This document shows, in pieces, positions 5,795 to 37,321 of a DNA stretch of 57,980 nt (position 1 is its first letter; the number at the start of each line of letters is the position of its first letter). The notes beneath the pieces were generated by a model. The model was not told the origin of the DNA and made no database searches. It worked only from the letters and a program-made list of their open reading frames with translations. The position numbers and the translations under genes were made by a program. Source of the stretch: an uncultured Campylobacteraceae bacterium (GTDB lineage: Bacteria; Campylobacterota; Campylobacteria; Campylobacterales; UBA6016); assembly GCA_964577355.1 (NCBI GenBank), contig CAZNYV010000002.1, forward strand, positions 1 through 57,980, written 5' to 3'.

Positions 5795-7071
5795 AGCGAC
5801 TGAGCGAGCTCGCTTATTTGAAATGCAACATCCAATTTGTCACTTTTTGCTATCAGAGCGGTGGAGTTCTGCGCGACAAACAAAACTTCATTATCATCGC
5901 TACCAAACCCAATCTCATCACTAAGTATATTTAGACAAACTGCGGATAATTTTTTCTCTTTTAACATTTTCTCAGCACTCGTCTTGGCCGTTTTTTCATC
6001 ATATTCTGCTTTGAATCCAATAACTTTTATACCGCTTTTTGGGAGCCCGCTTAGAATATCTTCTGTTTGAGCCAACTCAAGGTTTAGACTCTCTCCAATG
6101 TTCTCTTTTTTTAGTTTGCCACTATGCTTTGTTTTTGGTTTGTAGTCCGCGATTGCCGCCGCCATAAATAACATCGGCTCTTTTGACACACTCATCACTT
6201 GTGAACTATGCAGCAGCGACGGTTTTGTCATTTTGTGTTTTTGCGCCAAATCCATTTCGCTTTGGAGTGTGTTTTTGAAATCATCGCCGCTAGATACTTC
6301 GACTTGTCTAATCTGTGACGGCAATGTGTTTGATGGTTTGCTGCTAACCAATGTCACATCTGCACCTTTTGTAAATAATGCTAAAGCCAAAGCGTTTGCC
6401 ATCTTGCCACTCGAGAAGTTGCCTATGTATCTCACATCATCTATCTTCTCAACACTTCCGCCACCAGATATGACAACATTTCGATACTCATAAAACTCTT
6501 CTCTCAAAAGCGCCCTTGCACACTGCCAGAAAATATCGTTTATCTCTGCCATTGCTCCCTTGCCCTCATCGCCACAAGCCAAAAGTTTTGTGCTAGGCTC
6601 TACAATTTCGTATCCACAAATACCAAGCATTTTGAGATTTGCTTTTGTAATCGGATGCTCAAGCATCGCTGTATTCGCTGATGGGGCTATGATTTTTGTA
6701 CCTTTGTGAGCCAAAAGCGTCTGTGCCAAAAGGTTGTCTGCCAATCCGTTTGCTAGCTTTGCTATTGTGTTTGCAGTAGCAGGGGCTACAACAAAAGCCT
6801 CCGCCCATTTGGCGAAACCGATATGATTATGGTTTCTACCTTCAATCTCTTCCGCCCAGCTCTCATTTTCATCTGTAAGCACCAAATGTGTACTAATCGT
6901 CTCAAATGTAAGAGGTGCAATAAACTTCTCAGCACTTTTGCTCATGACGACACGAACATGAGCGCCACTCTTGACAAAAAGACGAATCAGCTCTAGTGTC
7001 TTGTAAATAGCGATAGAACCTGTGACTGCGACGCCGATGCGACGATTTTTTAGGAGATTTGAAGTGCTCAT
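5791..7071 (-). CDS. coaBC: bifunctional phosphopantothenoylcysteine decarboxylase / phosphopantothenate-cysteine ligase
   Basis: 426 aa. N-terminal flavoprotein domain (RIGVAVTGSIAIYKTLELIR) plus C-terminal CoaB domain (ISGGGSVEKIDDVRYIGNFSSGKM). Confidence 0.9.
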   Translation of the reverse strand: MSTSNLLKNRRIGVAVTGSIAIYKTLELIRLFVKSGAHVRVVMSKSAEKFIAPLTFETISTHLVLTDENESWAEEIEGRNHNHIGFAKWAEAFVVAPATANTIAKLANGLADNLLAQTLLAHKGTKIIAPSANTAMLEHPITKANLKMLGICGYEIVEPSTKLLACGDEGKGAMAEINDIFWQCARALLREEFYEYRNVVISGGGSVEKIDDVRYIGNFSSGKMANALALALFTKGADVTLVSSKPSNTLPSQIRQVEVSSGDDFKNTLQSEMDLAQKHKMTKPSLLHSSQVMSVSKEPMLFMAAAIADYKPKTKHSGKLKKENIGESLNLELAQTEDILSGLPKSGIKVIGFKAEYDEKTAKTSAEKMLKEKKLSAVCLNILSDEIGFGSDDNEVLFVAQNSTALIAKSDKLDVAFQISELAQSL

Positions 7072-7231
7072 TTGTAACCTTCGTAGATGAAGTTTTGCGG
7101 TTATTTTTCTGTTATTTTATAATTATTGCGCACAAAATGAGCAAAGCCCATTTTGACGGCAAGGACACATATATCCTTTACAATCCCCTAAAGCTTTTTC
7201 GCATAAAAATGCGAAAGAAACGCGTATTTTA

Positions 7232-8371
7232 CTACAAATATTTGAACTTACAAACGGCGCTAATCAAACTAGAAAAGATGGACTCAAGTTTGTCCAAATC
7301 AGCCGCCAACACTCGCTCATTTGGCGCATGAATAGTCTCATTTGATACACCAAATTCCATAACATGGACACCGTATTTAGCAATAAATCTAGCATCACTC
7401 GTGCCGCCGCTAGTAGAAAGTACTGGCGTAACACCTGTTTTGGACTTGATAATATTTGAAAGCACAGTTACGGCTTCTTTAGCTACCCCATCCATACTCG
7501 CCACAAACGACTCTGAACCTTGGTCGATTTTTAGCTCATAATTTGTAATGCCACACTCTGATGCGCAATTTCGCACAAAATTCTCAACATCAGACATTGT
7601 TGTGTTTGTAGAGTTTCGCACATTGAACATTAGTGAAAGCTCTGTTGGTATGACATTTGTCTTTTGGTAGCCACTCCTAATATCCGTAATAACCAATTGG
7701 CTTGGAGCAAAGAACTCATCTCCATTGTCTAGCTTTTTGTCAGCTATTTTTGAGACAAAACCACTTGCCAAAGATATTGGGTTGATCGCTTTTTGCGGAT
7801 AAGCGGCATGCCCACCCCTGCCTACAATAGTAATTTTACCATTGATTGAGCCTCGACGACCGACCTTGATAGTATCTCCAAGCTCATTTTCGCAAGTAGG
7901 TTCGGCTACTATACAAAGGATTGGAAGATTTTGGTTTTTTTTGAGGTGTTCGAGAATCTCCACAGTTCCATGAACTGCATCTCCCTCTTCGTCACTTGTA
8001 ATCAGCAAAGACAGTGTTCCGTCGAAATCTGTTGTAGCTTTTGCGGCATTCATAAACGCGGCAAGCCCGCTTTTCATATCGCTCGCACCCCTGCCATACA
8101 TATAACCATCTCGAATATCTGCTACAAATGGGTCACTTTGCCACCCTTCGCCAGAGGGCACAACATCTATATGTCCAGCAAAAGCCAAATGGATTCCATC
8201 GCCAAATTTTTTGTGAAGTAGAAGATTTTTGACCCCGCCAACATCTATTCGCACGGATTCAAACTCGGACAAGTACTCTGATATGAAATCAAGCGCTCCG
8301 TCATCGTCGGGAGTGAGAGAGCGAAACGAAATCAGCTTGGATAGTAGCTCTCTTGTCGTGATTTGCTCTAT
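7232..8371 (-). CDS. dapE: succinyl-diaminopimelate desuccinylase (M20 peptidase)
   Basis: HIDVVPSGEGWQSDPF, GRGASDMKSG and SDEEG motifs. The ORF track starts at TTG 8272. The same frame stays open upstream to 8428 and encodes the conserved DapE N-terminus (IEQITTRELLSKLISFRSLTPDDDGALDFISEYL) with no ATG/GTG/TTG. I therefore extend the model to ATA 8371-8369; the start is uncertain. Confidence 0.85.
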   Translation of the reverse strand: MEQITTRELLSKLISFRSLTPDDDGALDFISEYLSEFESVRIDVGGVKNLLLHKKFGDGIHLAFAGHIDVVPSGEGWQSDPFVADIRDGYMYGRGASDMKSGLAAFMNAAKATTDFDGTLSLLITSDEEGDAVHGTVEILEHLKKNQNLPILCIVAEPTCENELGDTIKVGRRGSINGKITIVGRGGHAAYPQKAINPISLASGFVSKIADKKLDNGDEFFAPSQLVITDIRSGYQKTNVIPTELSLMFNVRNSTNTTMSDVENFVRNCASECGITNYELKIDQGSESFVASMDGVAKEAVTVLSNIIKSKTGVTPVLSTSGGTSDARFIAKYGVHVMEFGVSNETIHAPNERVLAADLDKLESIFSSLISAVCKFKYL

Positions 8372-9309
8372 ATCACTACCACCTTGTTTCTGCCGCTTGC
8401 TTTTGCTTCGTCGATTGCCCTCTGACCCCTAGTGTTGATTGCTATCAAATCATCACCAGCTTCATGCGATATAACACCCGCACAGACCGTTAGCTGAATC
8501 ACCTCTTCAGAGTAAACGAGCTTACTAATCTCAATTTTTGCTCGTATTCTCTCGGCTATATCTTTTGCTTTTTCCAGACCGCCTTTGTTGATGACAATCG
8601 CAAAGTCTTCATCTCCGATTCTGTATATCTTGTCTTCATCCCCCAAATAGCTTTTTAGCGTATTCGATACAAATACAAGTACTTTATCGCCACCCAAATA
8701 ACCAAATCTATCATTTATGTCTTTGAAATTGTCTATATCTATGTATATAATGTGAGTTTCTAGTTTGACACTATTGTCAATATGAGTTAGCTTAGTAATA
8801 TCTGTTATATAAGCGCGTTTATTATGTAGCTTGGTTAGCCTATCCATCATTGATTTTTGAAGTGCGTTGCTTAGCTCAATTTCAAGCTTTCTGATATGCT
8901 CGTCAGATTTTTTGATTTCTTCTAGCAGTTTGCTTTGAAAACCTATCATATAAGAAACTATTTTTTCATAGTCAACATGCCCGCCGACGCTGTCCTCGGA
9001 GAGTTTGTCTATATATTCACCCTGACCAATAACAACCTTGGAAATCTCTTTGTTACTATTGGAGAACATCTCGAAAGTCTCTTGCGACAATGCTATATAT
9101 TTTTCCAAATCTTTTTCTGCGCTTTGAGGAGCTTGTTCTGAATATTTTTGAAAAATCTGCTTTATCTCTTCATCTTGCATTACAGCCAAAGTATCTTTGA
9201 ATACTTGCTCATAATACTTAGGATATGCCGGTGTGTTCGAGTCGATAAGCTTTTGGAGAGCCTTATCTCTAACACTGTCTATAATTGTTAACAACTCTGT
9301 TCTGTTCAA
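8368..9309 (-). CDS. GGDEF-domain protein with variant GDEDF active-site motif
   Basis: 313 aa. DRLTKLHNKR, DIDNFKDINDRFGYLGGDKVL, YRIGDEDFAIV (8602-8616), AKASGRNKVV. The helical N-terminal domain is shared with the 16867-17877 paralogue (P.YP.YYE). Confidence 0.7.
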   Translation of the reverse strand: MNRTELLTIIDSVRDKALQKLIDSNTPAYPKYYEQVFKDTLAVMQDEEIKQIFQKYSEQAPQSAEKDLEKYIALSQETFEMFSNSNKEISKVVIGQGEYIDKLSEDSVGGHVDYEKIVSYMIGFQSKLLEEIKKSDEHIRKLEIELSNALQKSMMDRLTKLHNKRAYITDITKLTHIDNSVKLETHIIYIDIDNFKDINDRFGYLGGDKVLVFVSNTLKSYLGDEDKIYRIGDEDFAIVINKGGLEKAKDIAERIRAKIEISKLVYSEEVIQLTVCAGVISHEAGDDLIAINTRGQRAIDEAKASGRNKVVVI

Positions 9310-9382
9310 AACTTGTGACCTTAATACGATTTATAAATAGAATTCTATAATATTAAATTGAAACTCACCAAAAAGGGTCGGA

Positions 9383-9853
9383 ATGTCAATTCTATTTAGA
9401 GCTTTAACATCGTCAATATGGGCGTTTTTATTAGTTTTTGGTTGCTCATCAAATCAAGCGCCAACTCAAAATCCAGAGCCAAAAAAAAAGAACTTTGACG
9501 AAATAGCAACTTTATCAGGTGTAAAAAGCAGAAATGAGCTAGTTTCAATTATCCTAAAAATTGTAATGTCCAACTATTTGGAGTCAAACTCTTTTGGCGA
9601 GATGAGCGATTTTTCTATTGACACAAACAACAAATCCTTTGCTTTTAGCTTGAACCTCAAAGGAGAAACTGCTCCGCTTAGGGTAGCTGTTTCAAAGTAT
9701 GAATTACAAAAAGAGAATGGCAAATTCTTTTTTGTAGCCAAAGACATTATCACTGACAAAGAGTGGCTTAATCAAGTTGCAAAAAAATATCTTCAAGAGA
9801 AAAAAATAGAAATCCCTTCGAAATATTCACTATTTCTGCAGTTGGTATCATAG
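9383..9853 (+). CDS. hypothetical lipoprotein
   Basis: 156 aa. Signal peptide ending in the lipobox-like LVFGC|SS. A TATAAT lies at 9346-9351 upstream. Confidence 0.55.
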   Translation: MSILFRALTSSIWAFLLVFGCSSNQAPTQNPEPKKKNFDEIATLSGVKSRNELVSIILKIVMSNYLESNSFGEMSDFSIDTNNKSFAFSLNLKGETAPLRVAVSKYELQKENGKFFFVAKDIITDKEWLNQVAKKYLQEKKIEIPSKYSLFLQLVS

Positions 9854-29915: not shown

Positions 29916-30497
29916 ATGAAATCAAGAGTTCTAAAAAGCGTTATTGCTGCGGCATCTCTAGTACTATTTGCTGGTTGCGCTGCTGAGCAGTCTCCAGTAG
30001 CACAAGCACCTGCTGCTGTAAAAAACAAATTTGCTGGTGCTCCATCGTGGGTACTTAATCCAAACCTTGAGGGCGGAATATGTGCACTTGGTAGTGCTGG
30101 ACCAAATGCTGCAGGGTTTAACTTCCAAAGAACGCAAGCGATGGCAAACGGTAGAGATGAGCTTGTCAGACAACTTGAGCTAAAAGTTAGCAACATGGTA
30201 AAAGACTTTACACAAGTAACAGGTGTGGGCAATGCGGCGACTATCGACAAAGTATCTAGCTCTGTTTCAAAACAAGTTGCAAGCCAAACACTTGCTGGTT
30301 CAAAACTAAAATCTACTTGGGTAGCTGACGATGGTGAGATGTTTGTATTGATGGTGATGGATCCAAATGCAGTTGCAAAAGCCACAAACGACTCTGTCAA
30401 AAGCTCTCTCAAAAACGATCAAGCGCTATGGCAACAATTTCAGGGTAAAAAAGCTCAAGATGAGCTAAGTGCTGAAATAGATAAAATGGTGAAATAA
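29916..30497 (+). CDS. LPP20/FlgP-like lipoprotein
   Basis: 193 aa. Lipobox LFAGC|A. Core GAPSWVLNP..GGICALGSAG..QRTQAMANGRDELVRQLELKVSNMV. Confidence 0.6.
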   Translation: MKSRVLKSVIAAASLVLFAGCAAEQSPVAQAPAAVKNKFAGAPSWVLNPNLEGGICALGSAGPNAAGFNFQRTQAMANGRDELVRQLELKVSNMVKDFTQVTGVGNAATIDKVSSSVSKQVASQTLAGSKLKSTWVADDGEMFVLMVMDPNAVAKATNDSVKSSLKNDQALWQQFQGKKAQDELSAEIDKMVK

Positions 30498-30501
30498 CAT
30501 C

Positions 30502-30954
30502 ATGAAAATATACGGGGCACTAATCATTTTAGTTGCCTCGGTACTTCTTACAGGTTGTGCAGAACTCCAACACGCCTCGTCTAAACCATCAGCTCCTGCA
30601 ATCAATTCAGCTACAAGCTCTAACACCAAACCTGCTTGGTTTTACAGCCCATGTCAAGATGGAAAAATAGGCGGTGTGGGTATTTCTGGAATGCATATCA
30701 ATGGTATATCCGCCCAAAGAGAGCTTGCAGTTAGTAGAGCAATAGATGAAATAGCAAGGCAACTAGGCGTAAAAGTTTCAAACATCCTCAAAACAAGTAC
30801 CGTGGCTAACAATTCGAGTGCATCAACGATGATGGAAAGCTATAGCTTCCAAACGGTTGATGGGAGAAATATAAGCGCTTCAATCGCAGGAATATGGAAT
30901 GACACAACTACTGATGAGCTGTATATCTGGATGTTGACATCGCAAAAACAATAG
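30502..30954 (+). CDS. LPP20/FlgP-like lipoprotein (paralogue of the preceding gene)
   Basis: 150 aa. Lipobox LLTGC|A. Core KPAWFYSP..GKIGGVGISG..AQRELAVSRAIDEIARQLGVKVSNIL. Confidence 0.6.
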   Translation: MKIYGALIILVASVLLTGCAELQHASSKPSAPAINSATSSNTKPAWFYSPCQDGKIGGVGISGMHINGISAQRELAVSRAIDEIARQLGVKVSNILKTSTVANNSSASTMMESYSFQTVDGRNISASIAGIWNDTTTDELYIWMLTSQKQ

Positions 30955-30986
30955 TTCTTCAAAAGTAAAAAATCAAGGAGTAAGAA

Positions 30987-31679
30987 GTGCTAAAAATATT
31001 TTTGGTATTTGTGTCTTTGTTTGTGGGCTTGCTTTTTGCAGCCCAACCGCCAGTTGGTAAAATAGATAAAACCGAGGGCAGTGTAAAGCTCTTAAAAGCA
31101 GGTACAATCAAAAAATTAAATGCCAATAAAGGCGATGAAATTTTTGCCAGCGACATTGTTATTACTGGGGAGAGCTCAAAGGCACTTGTCAAACTAACCA
31201 ATGGCACAAGCATAGTTGTTGGCTCACAAAGCAAAGTAGAGTTCAAGTCACCAGATTTGGCGATGCAATCAGAGGGTAAAAGTCTATACGCTGTAAATAA
31301 GCGAAATGCCAACGATAGCTTCAAAGTAGCTACTGACTTCGCAACCATTGGTGTCAAAGGCACAGAGTTTATAGTATCCTCCAACAAAGACGACAATAGA
31401 GTTTCTCTCAAAAAAGGACTTGTTGATGTCACTTCAAATGACGGTAATTTTGAGATACACAAAAAACAACCAAAAGGTGATTATGCAGAGTTTGCAGAGG
31501 GTATAAAATCAGAGTATCAAAAATACCAATCAGACCTTGAAAAAGAGTTTGTGGAATTCAAAAAATCCTTTGAACTGACACCAGATAAAACAGTTAGCTT
31601 CAATGGTAAAAAAGTTTACGAAAACAAATTTAATGACAAAATCACAGAAGAGTTCAAGGAGCTTGAAAACTTCAAATGA
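30987..31679 (+). CDS. FecR-domain periplasmic protein
   Basis: 230 aa. GTG start 7 nt after AAGGAG, with a signal peptide. GSVKLLKAGTIKKLNANKGDEIFASDIVITGESSKALVKLTNGTSIVVGSQSKVEF is a typical FecR beta-sandwich pattern. Confidence 0.65.
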   Translation: MLKIFLVFVSLFVGLLFAAQPPVGKIDKTEGSVKLLKAGTIKKLNANKGDEIFASDIVITGESSKALVKLTNGTSIVVGSQSKVEFKSPDLAMQSEGKSLYAVNKRNANDSFKVATDFATIGVKGTEFIVSSNKDDNRVSLKKGLVDVTSNDGNFEIHKKQPKGDYAEFAEGIKSEYQKYQSDLEKEFVEFKKSFELTPDKTVSFNGKKVYENKFNDKITEEFKELENFK

Positions 31680-33712
31680 GAGAGCACCTGTTAGCGAGAT
31701 ACATACTAGTTATAGCTTCGCTCGCTCTCACCCTGCTCGTGTGGTACTACGAAGTGCCACCCTTTCAACAAATCTCACTCAAATTTAACGATATAAATTA
31801 TGCATTCAACAGCAATTATCCAGAACAAAGCGTGGAAATTGTTGTAGTTGACGAGAAAAGTGTTAACAAATACGGCAGATGGCCTTGGGATAGGGCGCTA
31901 CTAGCCAAGGGGCTTGAGAAGCTTTCAAGTGCAAAAGCCGTAGGACTGGATATTGTTTTTTCAGAAAACTCCAGCGAAGTATCAGACTTAGCATTGGCAA
32001 AACAAATAGAAAAACAAGGCAATGTCATAGGCGGTTTTTTCTTGAGACCACGAGCCACAGAACAGCCAAACAAAAACCAACTAGAAAAACTAGCAGACTC
32101 ATCCATGGAGAGGCTTGATGGCAAGCTTCCATTTTACAAATTCCCATATGCTGAGCTAAACATCGAACCTATTTTAAATTCAACACAGCTCTCGGGTTGC
32201 TTCTCAACAGTTCCAGACAGTGACGAGCTTTTTAGAAGATACCCTGCAGCTTTTATCTACAACAACTCAGTACTACCATCACTTGGGGTTCAGCTTCTCA
32301 GGTATGCACTAAATATAGATGCGGAACTTGCCAGTAACGACTATCAACAATATCTAATGCTCCACGACCTAAAAATTTCGTTAGATACCGATGGCTTTGC
32401 GAAACTGAACTACTATCCTCTCAAAAGCTACAATCTAATCTCCTTTGCGGATGTTCTTGAAGGCAAGGTACAGCCGAGCTTTTTTGACAACAAAATAGTC
32501 ATCGTAGGAATCTCCGAAGCTGGAATATCCGACATCAGAGCGACACCACTCGGACAAATCGCTGGTCCAATACTGCACGCTACATTCATCTCAAATGTTC
32601 TGCAAGGAACGATTTTAAATCAACAAAAACTCTTCGATAGCGCTTTTATAGCACTATTCTTCCTGCTTCCTCTATTTGTTCAGTTTAGGGTCAAAAACAT
32701 CTCCCATCGAATGTCCATCTATGCTCTGACATATATTATGTATTTTTGCGTTTCGATTGTTCTGTACTCATACAAAGCCCAATGGCTAAATACATTTTAT
32801 CCACTCTTTGCGATTTCATTTTCTGTAGTTTTGAATGAGTTTTTGACTTTCAAAATTGACGAAAAGCAGGCAAAATTTATCAAAGGTGCTTTCACAAACT
32901 ATATGTCAGAAGATTTATTGGAGCAACTAGTCGATAATCCTGAAAAACTAACTCTAACTGGTGAGGAAAAAGAGTTGACCATCCTCTTTAGCGACATTAG
33001 AAATTTCACAACCATATCTGAATCACTGACATCAAAAGAGCTCGTCTCTCTACTAAATAGCTATTTCACACCTCTCACCAAAATCATCCAAGACGAACAC
33101 GGGACTGTTGACAAGTATATCGGGGATGCCATTATGGCTTTTTTCAACGCTCCGTTAGATTGCCAAGACCACCCAGCTGTTGCCTGCAGGTGCGCACTCA
33201 AGATGCAAGAGGCTCTAAAACATATGAACAAAGAGTTTGATAAATTTTCAAAACGCCCGATTGCGATGGGTATTGGTATCAACACCGGAGAGGTTACAAT
33301 CGGCAATATGGGTGCAGCAAATAAATTCAATTATACTGCAATAGGTGACAATGTAAATATTGCCTCTAGGCTGGAGGGGATAAATAAAAATTTTGGGACT
33401 GGAATCATCATCAGCGAATCAACGAAGGTTCAGCTGGATGAAAATGAGTTCTTGTGCAGGTATCTAGGGCGAGTTCCGCTCAAAGGAAAAGAGAAGAAAA
33501 TTGATATTTATGAGCTGCTTGAAAACAATGAACACAACCAAAGAAAGTGCAAATATTTCCAAACTATATTTGATAAAATAGAGGAGGGTGAAATTGTTAG
33601 TATGAGCGATAACATATTTGAGCAATTAGAACAAACAGATGAAGTAGGATATACAATCTGTCTAAATAAAATCAACGGAAAGGGTATAGATGCTAGAGGT
33701 AATAATTCTTAA
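31676..33712 (+). CDS. CHASE2-sensor class III adenylate/guanylate cyclase
   Basis: 678 aa. ATGA overlap with the FecR gene. N-terminal TM plus a periplasmic CHASE2-like region (VVVDEKSVNKYGRWPWDR), 3 further TM helices, and a cyclase core: ILFSDIRNFTTISE, DKYIGDAIMAFFNAP, GINTGEVTIGNMG, YTAIGDNVNIASRLEG. The Lys/Thr specificity pair suggests adenylate cyclase (inference). Confidence 0.8.
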   Translation: MREHLLARYILVIASLALTLLVWYYEVPPFQQISLKFNDINYAFNSNYPEQSVEIVVVDEKSVNKYGRWPWDRALLAKGLEKLSSAKAVGLDIVFSENSSEVSDLALAKQIEKQGNVIGGFFLRPRATEQPNKNQLEKLADSSMERLDGKLPFYKFPYAELNIEPILNSTQLSGCFSTVPDSDELFRRYPAAFIYNNSVLPSLGVQLLRYALNIDAELASNDYQQYLMLHDLKISLDTDGFAKLNYYPLKSYNLISFADVLEGKVQPSFFDNKIVIVGISEAGISDIRATPLGQIAGPILHATFISNVLQGTILNQQKLFDSAFIALFFLLPLFVQFRVKNISHRMSIYALTYIMYFCVSIVLYSYKAQWLNTFYPLFAISFSVVLNEFLTFKIDEKQAKFIKGAFTNYMSEDLLEQLVDNPEKLTLTGEEKELTILFSDIRNFTTISESLTSKELVSLLNSYFTPLTKIIQDEHGTVDKYIGDAIMAFFNAPLDCQDHPAVACRCALKMQEALKHMNKEFDKFSKRPIAMGIGINTGEVTIGNMGAANKFNYTAIGDNVNIASRLEGINKNFGTGIIISESTKVQLDENEFLCRYLGRVPLKGKEKKIDIYELLENNEHNQRKCKYFQTIFDKIEEGEIVSMSDNIFEQLEQTDEVGYTICLNKINGKGIDARGNNS

Positions 33713-34238
33713 GCTTGTAAGCAGTCTCACAGGCTATCTTTTTGAGGGGTACTTGGATTCAATAAAAAGTATAAATGTGGAAGGAGCTCCTAGCTGGTAC
33801 GGCAAAGACCACAGTAGCAAAAATCTTTACGCTTATGGCTATGCCAAAGGTGATATGGAGTCTATCGAGATAGCCAGAAACAACTGTCACATCGGGATGG
33901 TAAAAAAGATAAATGGAATCATAGAAGTGGTTGTGTATGACAATTTCAGAAATCTAAAAGACCCAAAAGAAAAACAGCTTGTCGAAGAGTTCAAAAAAGA
34001 TAGTAACCTAGAGGTATTTGTCACAAAAAATATGACATATGAAAAGCTAGATTCATTTGAAGAACAAAAAGAGAGTATGTTCAAAAAATACCGACCAGCC
34101 CAAAGTTTCGCTGGCGGTATGATACCAAAACAAGCCATCATCGATTATCAAAAAGAGAGACTTCAAAAAATCAAGTATGAAATCAATCACTATACATCAA
34201 ACAGTGCAGAGGATGAGATGGATAAAGAAAAAAAGTAG
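33690..34238 (+). CDS. hypothetical protein with LPP20-like core (GAPSWY..YAYGYA..IEIARNN)
   Basis: 182 aa. Overlaps the cyclase stop by 23 nt. Hydrophobic N-terminus without a clear cleavage site, and a K/E-rich C-terminus. Confidence 0.45.
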   Translation: MLEVIILKLVSSLTGYLFEGYLDSIKSINVEGAPSWYGKDHSSKNLYAYGYAKGDMESIEIARNNCHIGMVKKINGIIEVVVYDNFRNLKDPKEKQLVEEFKKDSNLEVFVTKNMTYEKLDSFEEQKESMFKKYRPAQSFAGGMIPKQAIIDYQKERLQKIKYEINHYTSNSAEDEMDKEKK

Positions 34239-35031
34239 GGCAAAACCTTATCGGATTATCGAAGGAATTGGAGCTAACGCAATAGCTTCATTTGACTCCT
34301 TCGGGAAATCCTATGACTTTTATGTTTCTCTGTCAAAAAAGCTTGTGACCCTTTCTATCGTCAAAAAACCGATAATTTACGAAATCACAAAACAGCTATA
34401 TTTCTCTTTTTACAAGAATTTTTCTAGTGTTCTGTGGACAAGTATTGTGTTTGGCTCACTCTTCATAGGTGTGATTATGAATGTACTCAAGCAGTATGGC
34501 TTGTCGGATATGACTGGAGATGTTGTTGTCAAGCTTTTTGCTGTAGAAATAGCACCAATAATCACAACAATGCTTCTAATTATCAAATCCTCCCTACCGA
34601 TGAATGTTGAACTAGCGCAAATGAAAGCTACAAAAGAAATGGACACGCTTCAGTTTTTCAACATAGATTCACTTGAATATATTTTTGTGCCGAGAGTTAT
34701 ATCTGGAGTCATCTCAGTGACTTTTCTCAGCTACTTTTTTTCGCTTATCATGGTCATCAGCGCATTTGTCTTCTCATCTATATTTTTTGAAATCAATCTT
34801 GGGAAATTTATATATAGTGTTGCAAAATCTATCGATATATTTGACATCATCATATTTTTCATCAAAGGGTTGCTGATAGGCTTATTTATTTTTACGATTC
34901 CGACCAGCAACGGATACAACACCTCTGTGTCGTACTACAAAATAGGCTCTCTCATATCTAGCGGAACCCTGAGACTGTTACTGATAATCATGATAATAGA
35001 GGTGCTAACATTAGCGATAAGATTTCTCTAG
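34177..35031 (+). CDS. divergent MlaE-like ABC permease
   Basis: 284 aa (ATG 34213 is a plausible alternative start). FAVEIAPIITTMLLIIKSSLPMNVELAQMKATKEMDTLQFFNIDSLEYIFVPRVISGVIS aligns with the MlaE core (LLRELGPVV..EIGxMrvTEQidAlE..dP...lv.PR), but the AGRAGSA segment is replaced. Confidence 0.7.
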   Translation: MKSITIHQTVQRMRWIKKKSRAKPYRIIEGIGANAIASFDSFGKSYDFYVSLSKKLVTLSIVKKPIIYEITKQLYFSFYKNFSSVLWTSIVFGSLFIGVIMNVLKQYGLSDMTGDVVVKLFAVEIAPIITTMLLIIKSSLPMNVELAQMKATKEMDTLQFFNIDSLEYIFVPRVISGVISVTFLSYFFSLIMVISAFVFSSIFFEINLGKFIYSVAKSIDIFDIIIFFIKGLLIGLFIFTIPTSNGYNTSVSYYKIGSLISSGTLRLLLIIMIIEVLTLAIRFL

Positions 35032-35075
35032 CATTTTTATATAACAATGCAGTAGCTGACAACAAGATAGCAGAG

Positions 35076-35477
35076 ATGAAGCAGAGTGCTTTTTTTGGGC
35101 TTGTCTCAAATACGCTTCCTCTCTTGGCATCAACATCCGCATATGAAAATATTGCTATAGTAAACCACTATAATAGTAACAATAGCCAATGCAATTTTAT
35201 TGTGCAAAGTTCATTTGAGGCGCTTGGTTTTGATAGAGAATCTATATACAAGATGCCAAGCAACCTCGACGAAAGGGAGCTATTTGCGACTATGCTATTG
35301 CGAGCGTGCCTTGTAAATGGTATTGTTATTATTGACAGGGCAACAACCCTATTGAGCAATGAGAGTGACTCTGATTTTCTCGATAAATGCGTAGCAGTTT
35401 TGAGTGACTTTTGCTCCAAAATCTCGATTTTTGATACAAAATCCAATATGAAATGGTATAAAAAACAGTATGATTAA
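35076..35477 (+). pseudogene. N-terminally deleted, degenerate MlaF-like ABC ATPase remnant
   Basis: The 133-aa ORF aligns only to the C-terminal half of ABC ATPases (..AYENIAIV.., EALGFDRESIYKMPSNLDERELFATMLLRACLVNGIVIIDRATTLLSNES). The LSGGQ signature reads NLDERE and the Walker B DE reads DR. Only 44 nt separate it from the mlaE stop, which leaves no room for Walker A or the Q-loop. Confidence 0.55.
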
Positions 35478-36318
35478 AAATATCGAATTCAAAGTAGGTC
35501 TATATATTATCTTCTCTGTAGCTGTCATCATCTCTTCGTTGGTATATATTGCATACAAAAAAGAGATACTCACTGATACAAATGTGTATCACCTCACTTC
35601 TGGCTCAGCTGATGGTATTATCGAGGGAATACCCGTTGTTTTTTCTGGTTTTGAGATAGGCAAAATAACAGATGTCAAGCTGACTCCAAATGGAACTGTC
35701 TCGGTCGACATCAGAGTTCCAAGAGAGCACACAAAATGGATTAGAAAAAACAGCCACTTTGTATTTACCAAGCCACTCATCGGTTCTCCAAAAATCGTCA
35801 TAGAGACAGCGGGGCTTGAGTATCCTATTTTGGCAAACAGAGCAAATGCAAAAATAGAGATAGCCGACAGCATCAATGACGCCATCGCAAAAGCAAAACC
35901 CATCATGGAGAGAGTTGACAAGATTTCAGCAAACCTAGAAACAGTATCAAACACTCTAGCACAAAAGAATTCCGCAGCAGCAATGGCTACTGGCAACAAC
36001 ACAAGCGGAGAAGATGTTGCCGAAACTCTCAAAAATACAAAAAAAATAACCGCACAAATAGTAAAACTTCTCGACAAAACAGACAAAACAGTCTTTGACG
36101 ACGATGGCATTATGAAGCAGACTAGAGAGATGCTTGTAAATATCAACAAAAACCTAGAAAATGTCAGAAAAATAACAGCCAACGGCGCCGATGCGAGCAA
36201 AGATTTGGCTCCTCTGACAAAAGAGATAGACATGGCACTCAAATCAACAAATGACCTACTCATAGAAATCGATAGCAAGATACCTTTCAAAGAAAAAAAG
36301 GAGATTAAACTACCTTGA
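35470..36318 (+). CDS. MlaD/MCE-domain protein
   Basis: 282 aa. N-terminal TM helix, MCE core GIIEGIPVVFSGFEIGKITDVKL, long helical C-terminus. 8-nt overlap with the preceding ORF. Confidence 0.7.
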   Translation: MIKNIEFKVGLYIIFSVAVIISSLVYIAYKKEILTDTNVYHLTSGSADGIIEGIPVVFSGFEIGKITDVKLTPNGTVSVDIRVPREHTKWIRKNSHFVFTKPLIGSPKIVIETAGLEYPILANRANAKIEIADSINDAIAKAKPIMERVDKISANLETVSNTLAQKNSAAAMATGNNTSGEDVAETLKNTKKITAQIVKLLDKTDKTVFDDDGIMKQTREMLVNINKNLENVRKITANGADASKDLAPLTKEIDMALKSTNDLLIEIDSKIPFKEKKEIKLP

Positions 36319-36998
36319 GAACTTATATGTTGAAATATTTTGCCCTAACGACTATTCTGATTTTTTTGACAGCGTGTTCATCAAAAGGCTCGCCAGCATG
36401 GGTAACCAACGCTTCTGGCTATGTTCAAAGACTAGAACTTAGCAAACTAAACGACAGCGGTGGCTTGTCAAAAACTATCAAGAAGAAGGCTCAAAACGCT
36501 GTTTCTCAAGGTGGCAGTATCTATGATTTGCAACAAATCGAGCTAATCGATAGCGCCATGGACTGCGCAACACTGCAAGATTTAAATATGACTGGCTATG
36601 TTACTCTGAGCAAAATCGAATCATATCCAAAGCTAGAAAGTTACAAAAGGTTTATAAACGCTGAGTTTGGCAGCTCCGACATTGCTGTCCTCCCAGCAGA
36701 GTATCAAGGTGTAGCAAAAAGCATCCTAGACAAAAACTACAATCAGGCCATCAAAAACTGTATGGATATAAACGACAACATATCGAAGCTAGTCGCTCTC
36801 GGAGTGGTTGGGAAGTATGACTCTAGCAATCAAGAAATATACCAAAATATGTTGACTATAGCCAAGCAAGAAGGTTACAAAACAGTCATCCTATCTGCCT
36901 ACGAGAGGTTAGCCAATATATATGACAAAAATGCAGAACCAGCAAAAGCCGAGGATATTCGCAAGAAAATCAATGCACTAAAAACAGCTGGAAATTAA
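36315..36998 (+). CDS. hypothetical lipoprotein (helical/TPR-like C-terminus)
   Basis: 227 aa. Lipobox FLTAC|S. TTGA overlap with the mlaD stop, with ATG 36327 as an alternative start. Confidence 0.5.
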   Translation: MRTYMLKYFALTTILIFLTACSSKGSPAWVTNASGYVQRLELSKLNDSGGLSKTIKKKAQNAVSQGGSIYDLQQIELIDSAMDCATLQDLNMTGYVTLSKIESYPKLESYKRFINAEFGSSDIAVLPAEYQGVAKSILDKNYNQAIKNCMDINDNISKLVALGVVGKYDSSNQEIYQNMLTIAKQEGYKTVILSAYERLANIYDKNAEPAKAEDIRKKINALKTAGN

Positions 36999-37012: not shown

Positions 37013-37321
37013 TCAGCTAACCCCAAACTCCACTGCGGTTTTGGTGTAGAATATATTTGCCTTGCTAGTTGCCAATCTGGCAAATAGCTTCTCACAGGCG
37101 TCACCATCTGCTACAACCACAATTTCTATAGCCTCATCGACAAGCTCAAAGAAGCCAGCACTATGGCAAACTCCTTGATGGTCGTATCCTTTTTGTATAT
37201 CAAATATGCTTATTCCCTTGATACCGACAGTCCTTGTTTCTCGGAGCAAAAACTCATCAATACTAAGCCCGTCAAACCGTCTGCTTCTAACTGAGAAAAA
37301 CGATATTTTATACCCTTTCAT
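37013..37321 (-). CDS. DUF190 (PII-like) protein commonly paired with crcB
   Basis: 102 aa, immediately downstream of crcB. Its size and GIKGISIF..GYD pattern fit DUF190. Confidence 0.55.
   Translation of the reverse strand: MKGYKISFFSVRSRRFDGLSIDEFLLRETRTVGIKGISIFDIQKGYDHQGVCHSAGFFELVDEAIEIVVVADGDACEKLFARLATSKANIFYTKTAVEFGVS

Follow-up and report, generated by a model that had tools for sequence, protein, structure and literature searches.

The energy source of MCE systems and the direction of their lipid transport are still under debate. PqiABC and LetAB are MCE systems without a known ATPase, in which the inner-membrane partners PqiA and LetA are not ATP-binding cassette (ABC) permeases and each MCE protein carries several MCE domains; in Pqi, a lipoprotein caps the needle. 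The mycobacterial Mce systems have YrbE/MlaE-type permeases served by a shared ATPase, MceG/Mkl, which is encoded elsewhere. The closest characterised system to the one described here is MpcEFDA (Mla–Pqi chimeric) of Brucella abortus, a four-gene operon whose needle-type MCE protein is proposed to be capped at the outer membrane by the operon's lipoprotein; MpcF is an ABC ATPase homologous to MlaF, MpcE has an N-terminal STAS domain and MpcA is PqiC-like (PMC12436622). Here, we describe a four-gene Mla-like cassette from an uncultured Campylobacteraceae bacterium, found at positions 34177–36998 of a 57,980-nt stretch of DNA (assembly GCA_964577355.1, contig CAZNYV010000002.1; the whole stretch is hereafter called the window), in which the ATPase slot is occupied by a half-size and, by its motifs, catalytically dead remnant of an ABC ATPase domain.

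The cassette genes lie on the + strand in the order MlaE-type permease (MlaE'), remnant, long MCE protein and TPR-like lipoprotein. MlaE' (34177–35031) belongs to a divergent clade of PF02405, which it matched at 3.9e-37. Its open reading frame (ORF) is closed by a TAG at 35029–35031, followed by a 44-nt spacer and then by the ATG, at 35076, of a 133-aa ORF (35076–35477). This ORF encodes the remnant, which we call the half-NBD (half of a nucleotide-binding domain) and which was identified by a family profile, a fold search and its membership in the resulting family. The end of the ORF overlaps the start of the MCE gene at 35470 by 8 nt (ATGATTAA). The MCE gene (35470–36318, 282 aa; PF02470, 5.9e-8) ends with a TGA that overlaps the TTG start of the fourth gene (36315–36998), encoding a 227-aa lipoprotein with lipobox LTAC and an all-helical TPR-like fold, recognised by homology across lineages and from an AlphaFold2 (AF2) model. 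All genes from the upstream lipoproteins to position 36998 are on the + strand, and a convergent gene at 37013 bounds the operon. An earlier note, made from the DNA letters of the window, had given the span of the module, the coordinates of the 133-aa ORF, the mlaE–mlaF–mlaD-type order and the 8-nt coupling, all of which were borne out by the ORFs and their junctions.

As a single sequence, the 133-aa protein had no Pfam or NCBIfam match, even at E ≤ 1, and when 5.8 billion proteins were searched through a word index, the query alone came back. Homologues of 134–144 aa were gathered via the syntenic loci in relatives. A profile of six of these sequences matched ABC ATPase domains (MacB, LolD, MJ0796) at 2.1e-7, and a profile of 61 sequences matched ABC ATPase chains in the PDB at 2.9e-12. 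Both matches were confined to residues ≈80/93–215 of the 245-aa ATPase chains, a span that begins with the strand before the Q-loop, ends with the H-loop strand and corresponds to the C-terminal ≈55% of the ABC ATPase domain. An AlphaFold model of the protein, of moderate confidence (pLDDT 68, pTM 0.65), contained three strands together with the helical-subdomain helices. When this model was compared with the PDB by Foldseek, all 50 listed matches were ABC ATPase domains, MlaF included, with probabilities of ≈1.0 and TMq values of 0.48–0.60. Alignment to PF00005, which the earlier note had suggested, gave no match for the window protein, whereas typical family members matched profile positions ≈55–136 at 13–18 bits, below the gathering threshold of 25 bits. 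NCBIfam yielded weak partial matches of the family to many ATPase models. The profile and fold matches show that the 133-aa ORF derives from an ABC ATPase domain and represents its C-terminal half, as had been proposed.

The small protein might instead have been a STAS/MlaB-like accessory of non-ABC origin, an identity that the earlier note had itself raised against its own reading. MlaB-type proteins are small and accompany Mla systems, and the single-sequence searches of Pfam and NCBIfam were silent. However, the 2.9e-12 match brings all motif positions into register, the listed fold matches are ABC ATPases throughout, and the sub-threshold PF00005 matches cover the expected part of that profile. 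STAS appeared neither in Pfam or NCBIfam at E ≤ 1 nor among the 50 listed fold matches, and no cassette protein had a STAS match in Pfam, MlaE' carrying PF02405 only. We give a non-ABC origin virtually no credence.

Motif positions in the half-NBD were mapped from HMMER alignments. The LSGGQ signature reads L64-D-E-R-E68; the Walker B Asp is retained as D87, but R88 takes the place of the catalytic Glu, N12 that of the Q-loop Gln and T121 that of the H-loop His. These assignments confirm the degenerate signature, the altered Walker B and the missing H-loop described in the earlier note. A Walker A motif (GxxGxGK[ST]) was found neither in the 133-aa ORF, nor in any of 150 family representatives, nor in the stop-to-stop frames of 80 out of 80 loci. 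These loci, to which the locus counts below also refer, are the best 80 of 236 stretches with MlaE' relatives in a collection of one genome per species, and most are from Syntrophales (Smithella, Syntrophaceae, Smithellaceae). As the earlier note had pointed out, the 44-nt upstream spacer is too short to encode the missing Walker A half. Across the family, the Q-loop Gln position varies, the signature has lost its GG, Arg predominates in place of the catalytic Glu, and the H-loop His gives way to Tyr, Leu or Thr. The catalytic columns are replaced across 101 aligned members, and the Walker B Asp, kept in about half of the members, is the only catalytic motif residue to persist. Judged by these motifs, the half-NBD is predicted neither to bind nor to hydrolyse ATP by any canonical ABC route.

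Several other interpretations of the truncated domain were considered and not upheld. A split ATPase with its Walker A half encoded nearby does not fit, as no cassette protein has a P-loop and a full ABC ATPase lies within 3.5 kb in just one of the 80 loci, on the opposite strand. Subfamilies of ≈168 aa in Deferribacteres and Desulfoplanes have N-terminal extensions, but these align just before the Q-loop and not to Walker A, so they are not a vestigial P-loop. A salt bridge between R88 and D120 that would fill the old active site was not supported by the pair counts, which showed no covariation because D120 is nearly constant. Descent specifically from MlaF is not evident either: when compared with the ATPases of this genome, the family profile scored 33.9, 25.6 and 24.9 bits with MacB/LolD/FtsE/LptB-type proteins and 11.9 bits with MlaF. 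A 242-aa, full-length ABC_tran protein from a Saprospiraceae metagenome-assembled genome (MAG; locus L156, 5001–5729) also scored with the half-domain profile and has a degenerate Walker A (GSPNSGMQS), signature (LSHFE) and Walker B (DDP). This protein (P0118) was rejected as an evolutionary intermediate, since it has no MCE context.

A profile was searched exhaustively against 1.84 billion representative proteins; 542 clusters passed E ≤ 1e-3, 114 of them also E ≤ 1e-10, and the median length of the family is 138 aa. The window protein matched the family profile at 1.9e-49 in this search and at 1.1e-35 in a search of relatives from its order. The best-conserved positions of the family, P15, L16, N19, L20 and N25, directly follow the Q-loop position and are near-invariant, as is a Ser before it. 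Further conserved residues are F70, R76 and A77 in the signature helix, and P89, D120 and Y128. No Pfam or NCBIfam model captures the family, which is labelled ‘hypothetical’ at NCBI and carries assorted ‘ABC-type ... ATPase subunit’ names at JGI, and surveys that look for MlaF beside MlaE would therefore misread these loci.

The ratio of nonsynonymous to synonymous substitution rates (dN/dS), calculated for three congeneric relatives outside the window's genus, was 0.057–0.074 for the half-NBD gene and 0.010–0.061 for its neighbours; dS is near saturation in this comparison and the values are rough. The half-NBD gene evolves a few-fold faster than the neighbouring genes, but it is clearly constrained and under purifying selection.

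In all 80 loci, MlaE' is followed by a half-domain without Walker A, and the slot, measured from the MlaE' stop to the half-domain stop, spans 449–473 nt. All four genes are present in 73 of the loci; the other seven are cut by contig ends or, once, contain an insert. The same four-gene arrangement occurs in distant subfamilies, from a cultured Deferribacteraceae isolate with a complete genome, Desulfoplanes and Sulfurimonas, and distant MAG contigs have a small gene between MlaE (≈261 aa) and MCE (≈320 aa) genes, followed by a gene for a ≈220-aa protein that has no Pfam match and is homologous to the window lipoprotein. The cassette is thus spread over Campylobacterota, Syntrophales/Desulfoplanes and Deferribacteraceae, at least three phyla. 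Within the window's order, the half-NBD family was found in 7 of 41 relatives, and within its phylum in 13 of 301 high-quality genomes, from 8 of 58 genera. In a phylogenetic tree, the MlaE' proteins grouped together with 100/100 support and were separate from canonical MlaE, and the Syntrophales MlaE' sequences were nested among those of Campylobacterales. This nesting suggests a single origin of the cassette followed by lateral spread, in a tree with a small sample.

One locus from a relative in the window's order (L069, G030:C61:16000–27500) has a Septu defence pair inserted between the half-ATPase and MCE genes on the minus strand (6245–8228; PtuA 8.9e-110, PtuB 1.2e-38; AAA_15/AAA_21 and HNH), the cassette being otherwise intact.

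The distribution bears directly on whether the 133-aa ORF is a ‘fossil’ in a decaying module, as the earlier note had it, that is, a strain- or lineage-specific mlaF pseudogene remnant heading for loss. The window copy is among the most divergent members of its family, fails to match Pfam as a single sequence and stands next to a MlaE' that forms a long branch, observations that would fit a decaying gene. On the other hand, the ORF is intact and its translational coupling is conserved, every one of the 80 loci and four further lineages have the short form, and the family has its own invariant residues and a dN/dS of ≈0.06–0.07. The window copy scores 122.7 bits against the family model, within the range of its relatives (120.8–161.8 bits). 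Nor is a strain-specific deletion indicated, as the relatives have no full-length ATPase at this locus. Decay is refuted at the level of the family, and we consider it very improbable for the window copy. The other suggestion of the earlier note, that the intact ORF persists as a structural subunit, is the most plausible role.

The other cassette proteins retain recognisable features of an MCE system. MlaE' keeps the universal segment from the end of transmembrane (TM) helix 3 through the coupling helix to the start of TM4 (R..S....E...M.V......D...YL..P.I), and the MlaE core residues are conserved. The earlier note rightly called this MlaE divergent, as seen from its separate clade, but the AGRAGSA segment that it considered lost has diverged instead: the equivalent reads IKSSLP in the window MlaE', LRSSSA in the module relatives and SRAISA in the canonical MlaE of this genome. 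The MCE protein comprises an N-terminal TM helix, one MCE domain and a helical C-terminal region of ≈165 aa, ending in the tail ...KEIKLP. From the long helical region and faint Helical_needle matches in the orthologues, we infer that it forms a needle. In the family, the C-terminus follows the pattern KK.PE[IF]K[LV]P, with the terminal Pro present in 85 of 85 sequences, and this conserved tail may be a docking peptide for the adjoining TPR-like lipoprotein. The AF2 model of the lipoprotein (pLDDT 88) is all-helical and gave weak TPR matches in a fold search. A PqiC-like fold for the fourth gene was rejected in view of this TPR-like model; PqiC was not among the 50 listed fold matches, nor was there an ABC_trans_aux match.

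In solved ABC transporters, the segment after the Q-loop lines the groove for the coupling helix. Since this segment and the helical subdomain are the best-conserved parts of the family, the half-NBD most probably rests on MlaE' as a cap without catalytic function. We propose a model in which two copies of the half-NBD would dock on the retained coupling helices of a MlaE' dimer, capping it without catalysis, while an MCE hexamer would extend a helical tube across the periplasm and the TPR lipoprotein would hold the invariant C-terminal ...K(L/V)P tail of the MCE protein. A lipoprotein gripping the MCE tail is a reasonable picture by analogy with MpcD–MpcA and PqiB–PqiC. Such an assembly would allow lipids or further hydrophobic compounds to pass between the two membranes while itself hydrolysing no ATP. 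MlaFEDB is reported to carry out spontaneous phospholipid transfer in vitro without ATP (10.1101/2021.05.25.445566), which makes a motor-less MlaE/MCE conduit mechanistically plausible.

We therefore favour, with moderate confidence, the interpretation that MlaE', half-NBD, MCE protein and TPR lipoprotein make up a conserved system with a non-catalytic half-NBD docked on the permease and no ATPase of its own; this Mla-like branch probably works without a dedicated motor. A broader evolutionary scenario is possible, although we hold it more loosely: a branch of the ABC lineage would have abandoned ATP while keeping the stump of the motor as a structural clamp, yielding a passive or otherwise energised transenvelope lipid bridge, intermediate between the ATP-driven Mla and Mpc systems and the ATPase-free Pqi and Let systems.

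Several observations weigh against the favoured interpretation. The window copy deviates at near-invariant positions of the half-NBD family (N19S, L20T, P89A), and the long branch of the window MlaE' points the same way. The contact between half-NBD and MlaE' is deduced from conserved residues. Moreover, every well-sampled genome with the cassette also encodes an MlaF-type ATPase, and in the genome of the window the genes for MlaF and canonical MlaE are already separated.

The earlier note had suggested searching the other parts of the genome for a second, intact mlaFED set or an orphan mlaF. An MlaF-type ATPase was indeed found (C45:11840–12592, minus strand; best NCBIfam match MlaF, 6.9e-57), but there is no single set: canonical MlaE (C4:14664–15455; 8.2e-67), MlaF and a long MCE protein of at least 387 aa, cut by the contig start (C11:6–1169), are at three separate loci, and MlaF is unlinked to the cassette. 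A weak third ‘MCE’ match on C4 corresponds to an ORF directly 3' of an MreB-like gene, and we take it to be MreC, by its position only. MlaA and MlaC (PF04333, PF05494) were not found in this genome, which is 92.7% complete. The combination of MlaE, MlaF and a long MCE protein without MlaA or MlaC resembles the minimal MlaEFD type with elongated MlaD described in a survey of Veillonella (PMC10665443) and noted for Helicobacter pylori (PMC11756786). Given these separate genes, the cassette is a second, paralogous system, present alongside a canonical Mla set.

With a genuine MlaF gene at another locus, energisation in trans is possible. MlaF or another ABC ATPase of the genome would then act on MlaE' as a borrowed motor, much as MceG/Mkl serves the mycobacterial Mce systems, with the half-NBD as an adaptor, assembly factor or regulator rather than a substitute for the ATPase. 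An MlaF-type ATPase is present not only in this genome but also in all seven module-bearing relatives and in the complete genomes of three Syntrophales (G041–G043) and the Deferribacteraceae isolate (G045); in this genome it is not next to canonical MlaE either, and the MlaE' coupling helix looks canonical. Against a borrowed motor, the half-NBD retains the part of the ATPase domain that docks on the permease, a site for which it and a full ATPase would be expected to compete. Nor could its degenerate signature, which lacks the GG, make up a composite ATP site together with a full partner. In the complete genomes, the MlaF-type ATPases appear to be dedicated partners of canonical MlaE: five canonical MlaE genes on the Syntrophales chromosomes, and the single one in the Deferribacteraceae genome, each adjoin an MlaF-type ATPase gene, while the MlaE' of the module never does. 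Finally, in one Syntrophales MAG (G044), which may be incomplete, the module contains the sole MlaE and there is no MlaF-level match (best 1e-42). Of the three readings offered in the earlier note, decay is eliminated, operation without its own ATPase is preferred, and we regard borrowing in trans as unlikely, though worth keeping in view.

The cassette in the window is the Campylobacterales version, among the most divergent members, and sits within an array of LPP20, FecR and CHASE2-cyclase genes. Upstream, at 29916–33712 on the + strand, are genes for an LPP20 lipoprotein (Pfam E-value 1.6e-12), a second lipoprotein, a FecR-domain protein (6.3e-12) and a CHASE2 adenylate/guanylate cyclase (CHASE2 2e-48; Guanylate_cyc 5.3e-30). 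They are followed by a gene for a 182-aa protein without a Pfam match (33690–34238, + strand), which has 184-aa orthologues directly 5' of MlaE' in three relatives (G001, G003, G005), with a dN/dS of 0.02–0.03; the protein is kept at this position in the window's family and lies outside the universal cassette. It contains the motif EGAPSWYGK, reminiscent of the LPP20-type neighbours. The gene shares 62 nt with the MlaE' ORF, a figure that falls to 26 nt if an alternative ATG at 34213 is the start of MlaE'; the corresponding overlap in the relatives is 4 nt, and the ATG at 34213 is likely the true start.

This setting raises the question of whether the cassette is a transporter at all. It might be an envelope tether or sensor built on an MlaE/MCE scaffold, wired in the window's lineage to the upstream FecR and CHASE2 cyclase. 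FtsEX provides a precedent as an ABC-type machine that does not transport, and loss of ATPase function would suit a static role. Genes for FecR, CHASE2 cyclase and a DUF protein precede the cassette in the window, G001, G003 and G005, all on one strand and with overlaps, and in G030 it is preceded by two LPP20 genes and FecR. However, only part of the Campylobacterales shows the association with FecR, LPP20 and cyclase. The cassettes of Syntrophales, Deferribacteraceae, Desulfoplanes and Sulfurimonas have only unrelated genes around them, and both the MCE domain and the MlaE core residues are still conserved. A purely tethering or sensing role is accordingly doubtful, in our estimation.

Other neighbourhoods were seen at individual loci. 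In a Sulfurimonas MAG (L157), a gene for outer-membrane phospholipase A (8697–9827; PF02253, PLA1, with a weak Sel1 match) is located two genes 3' of the cassette, and a functional link to outer-membrane lipid homeostasis is possible. In three Syntrophales-type loci (L055, L056 and L057), the cassette is divergent from a gene for a DegP/HtrA-type protease (Trypsin_2 and two PDZ domains); this arrangement is kept in L055 and L057, and L056 has one additional gene in between.

A widely conserved MlaE/MCE machine that does not bind ATP, if the favoured interpretation is right, would be a natural test of what a permease and an MCE tube can do without ATP. The cassette would equally test what a non-catalytic part of an ABC ATPase domain contributes to structure.

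Full-text literature searches found no paper describing a half-size ATPase remnant in MlaE/MCE operons, and the Veillonella survey mentions just ‘uncertainty of MlaF annotations’ (PMC10665443). Like Brucella MpcEFDA, the cassette has the slot order of MlaE-type permease, ATPase slot, long helical MCE protein and lipoprotein, and both are without MlaC; unlike in MpcEFDA, a dead half-domain of 133 aa fills the ATPase slot, the permease MlaE' lacks a STAS domain and the lipoprotein is TPR-like. With MlaFEDB of E. coli, A. baumannii and P. aeruginosa (PDB 6xgy, 7ch7, 7ch8), the cassette shares an MlaE permease, a single-domain MCE protein and an ABC-derived cytoplasmic subunit; the coupling-helix motif is retained in MlaE', and MlaF chains are among the fold matches of the half-NBD. 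It differs from MlaFEDB in that it is without a functional ATPase, that no MlaB was found in the cassette and that no MlaA or MlaC was found in the genome. The MCE protein is also ≈100 aa longer than E. coli MlaD (183 aa, PMC10665443). As in PqiABC and LetAB, the cassette is without an ATPase of its own, and as in Pqi it includes a lipoprotein, but its scaffold is ABC-derived, with an ATPase remnant, and its MCE protein has a single MCE domain. Lastly, whereas the mycobacterial Mce operons leave the ATPase slot empty, the cassette conserves a dedicated, dead remnant in that place.

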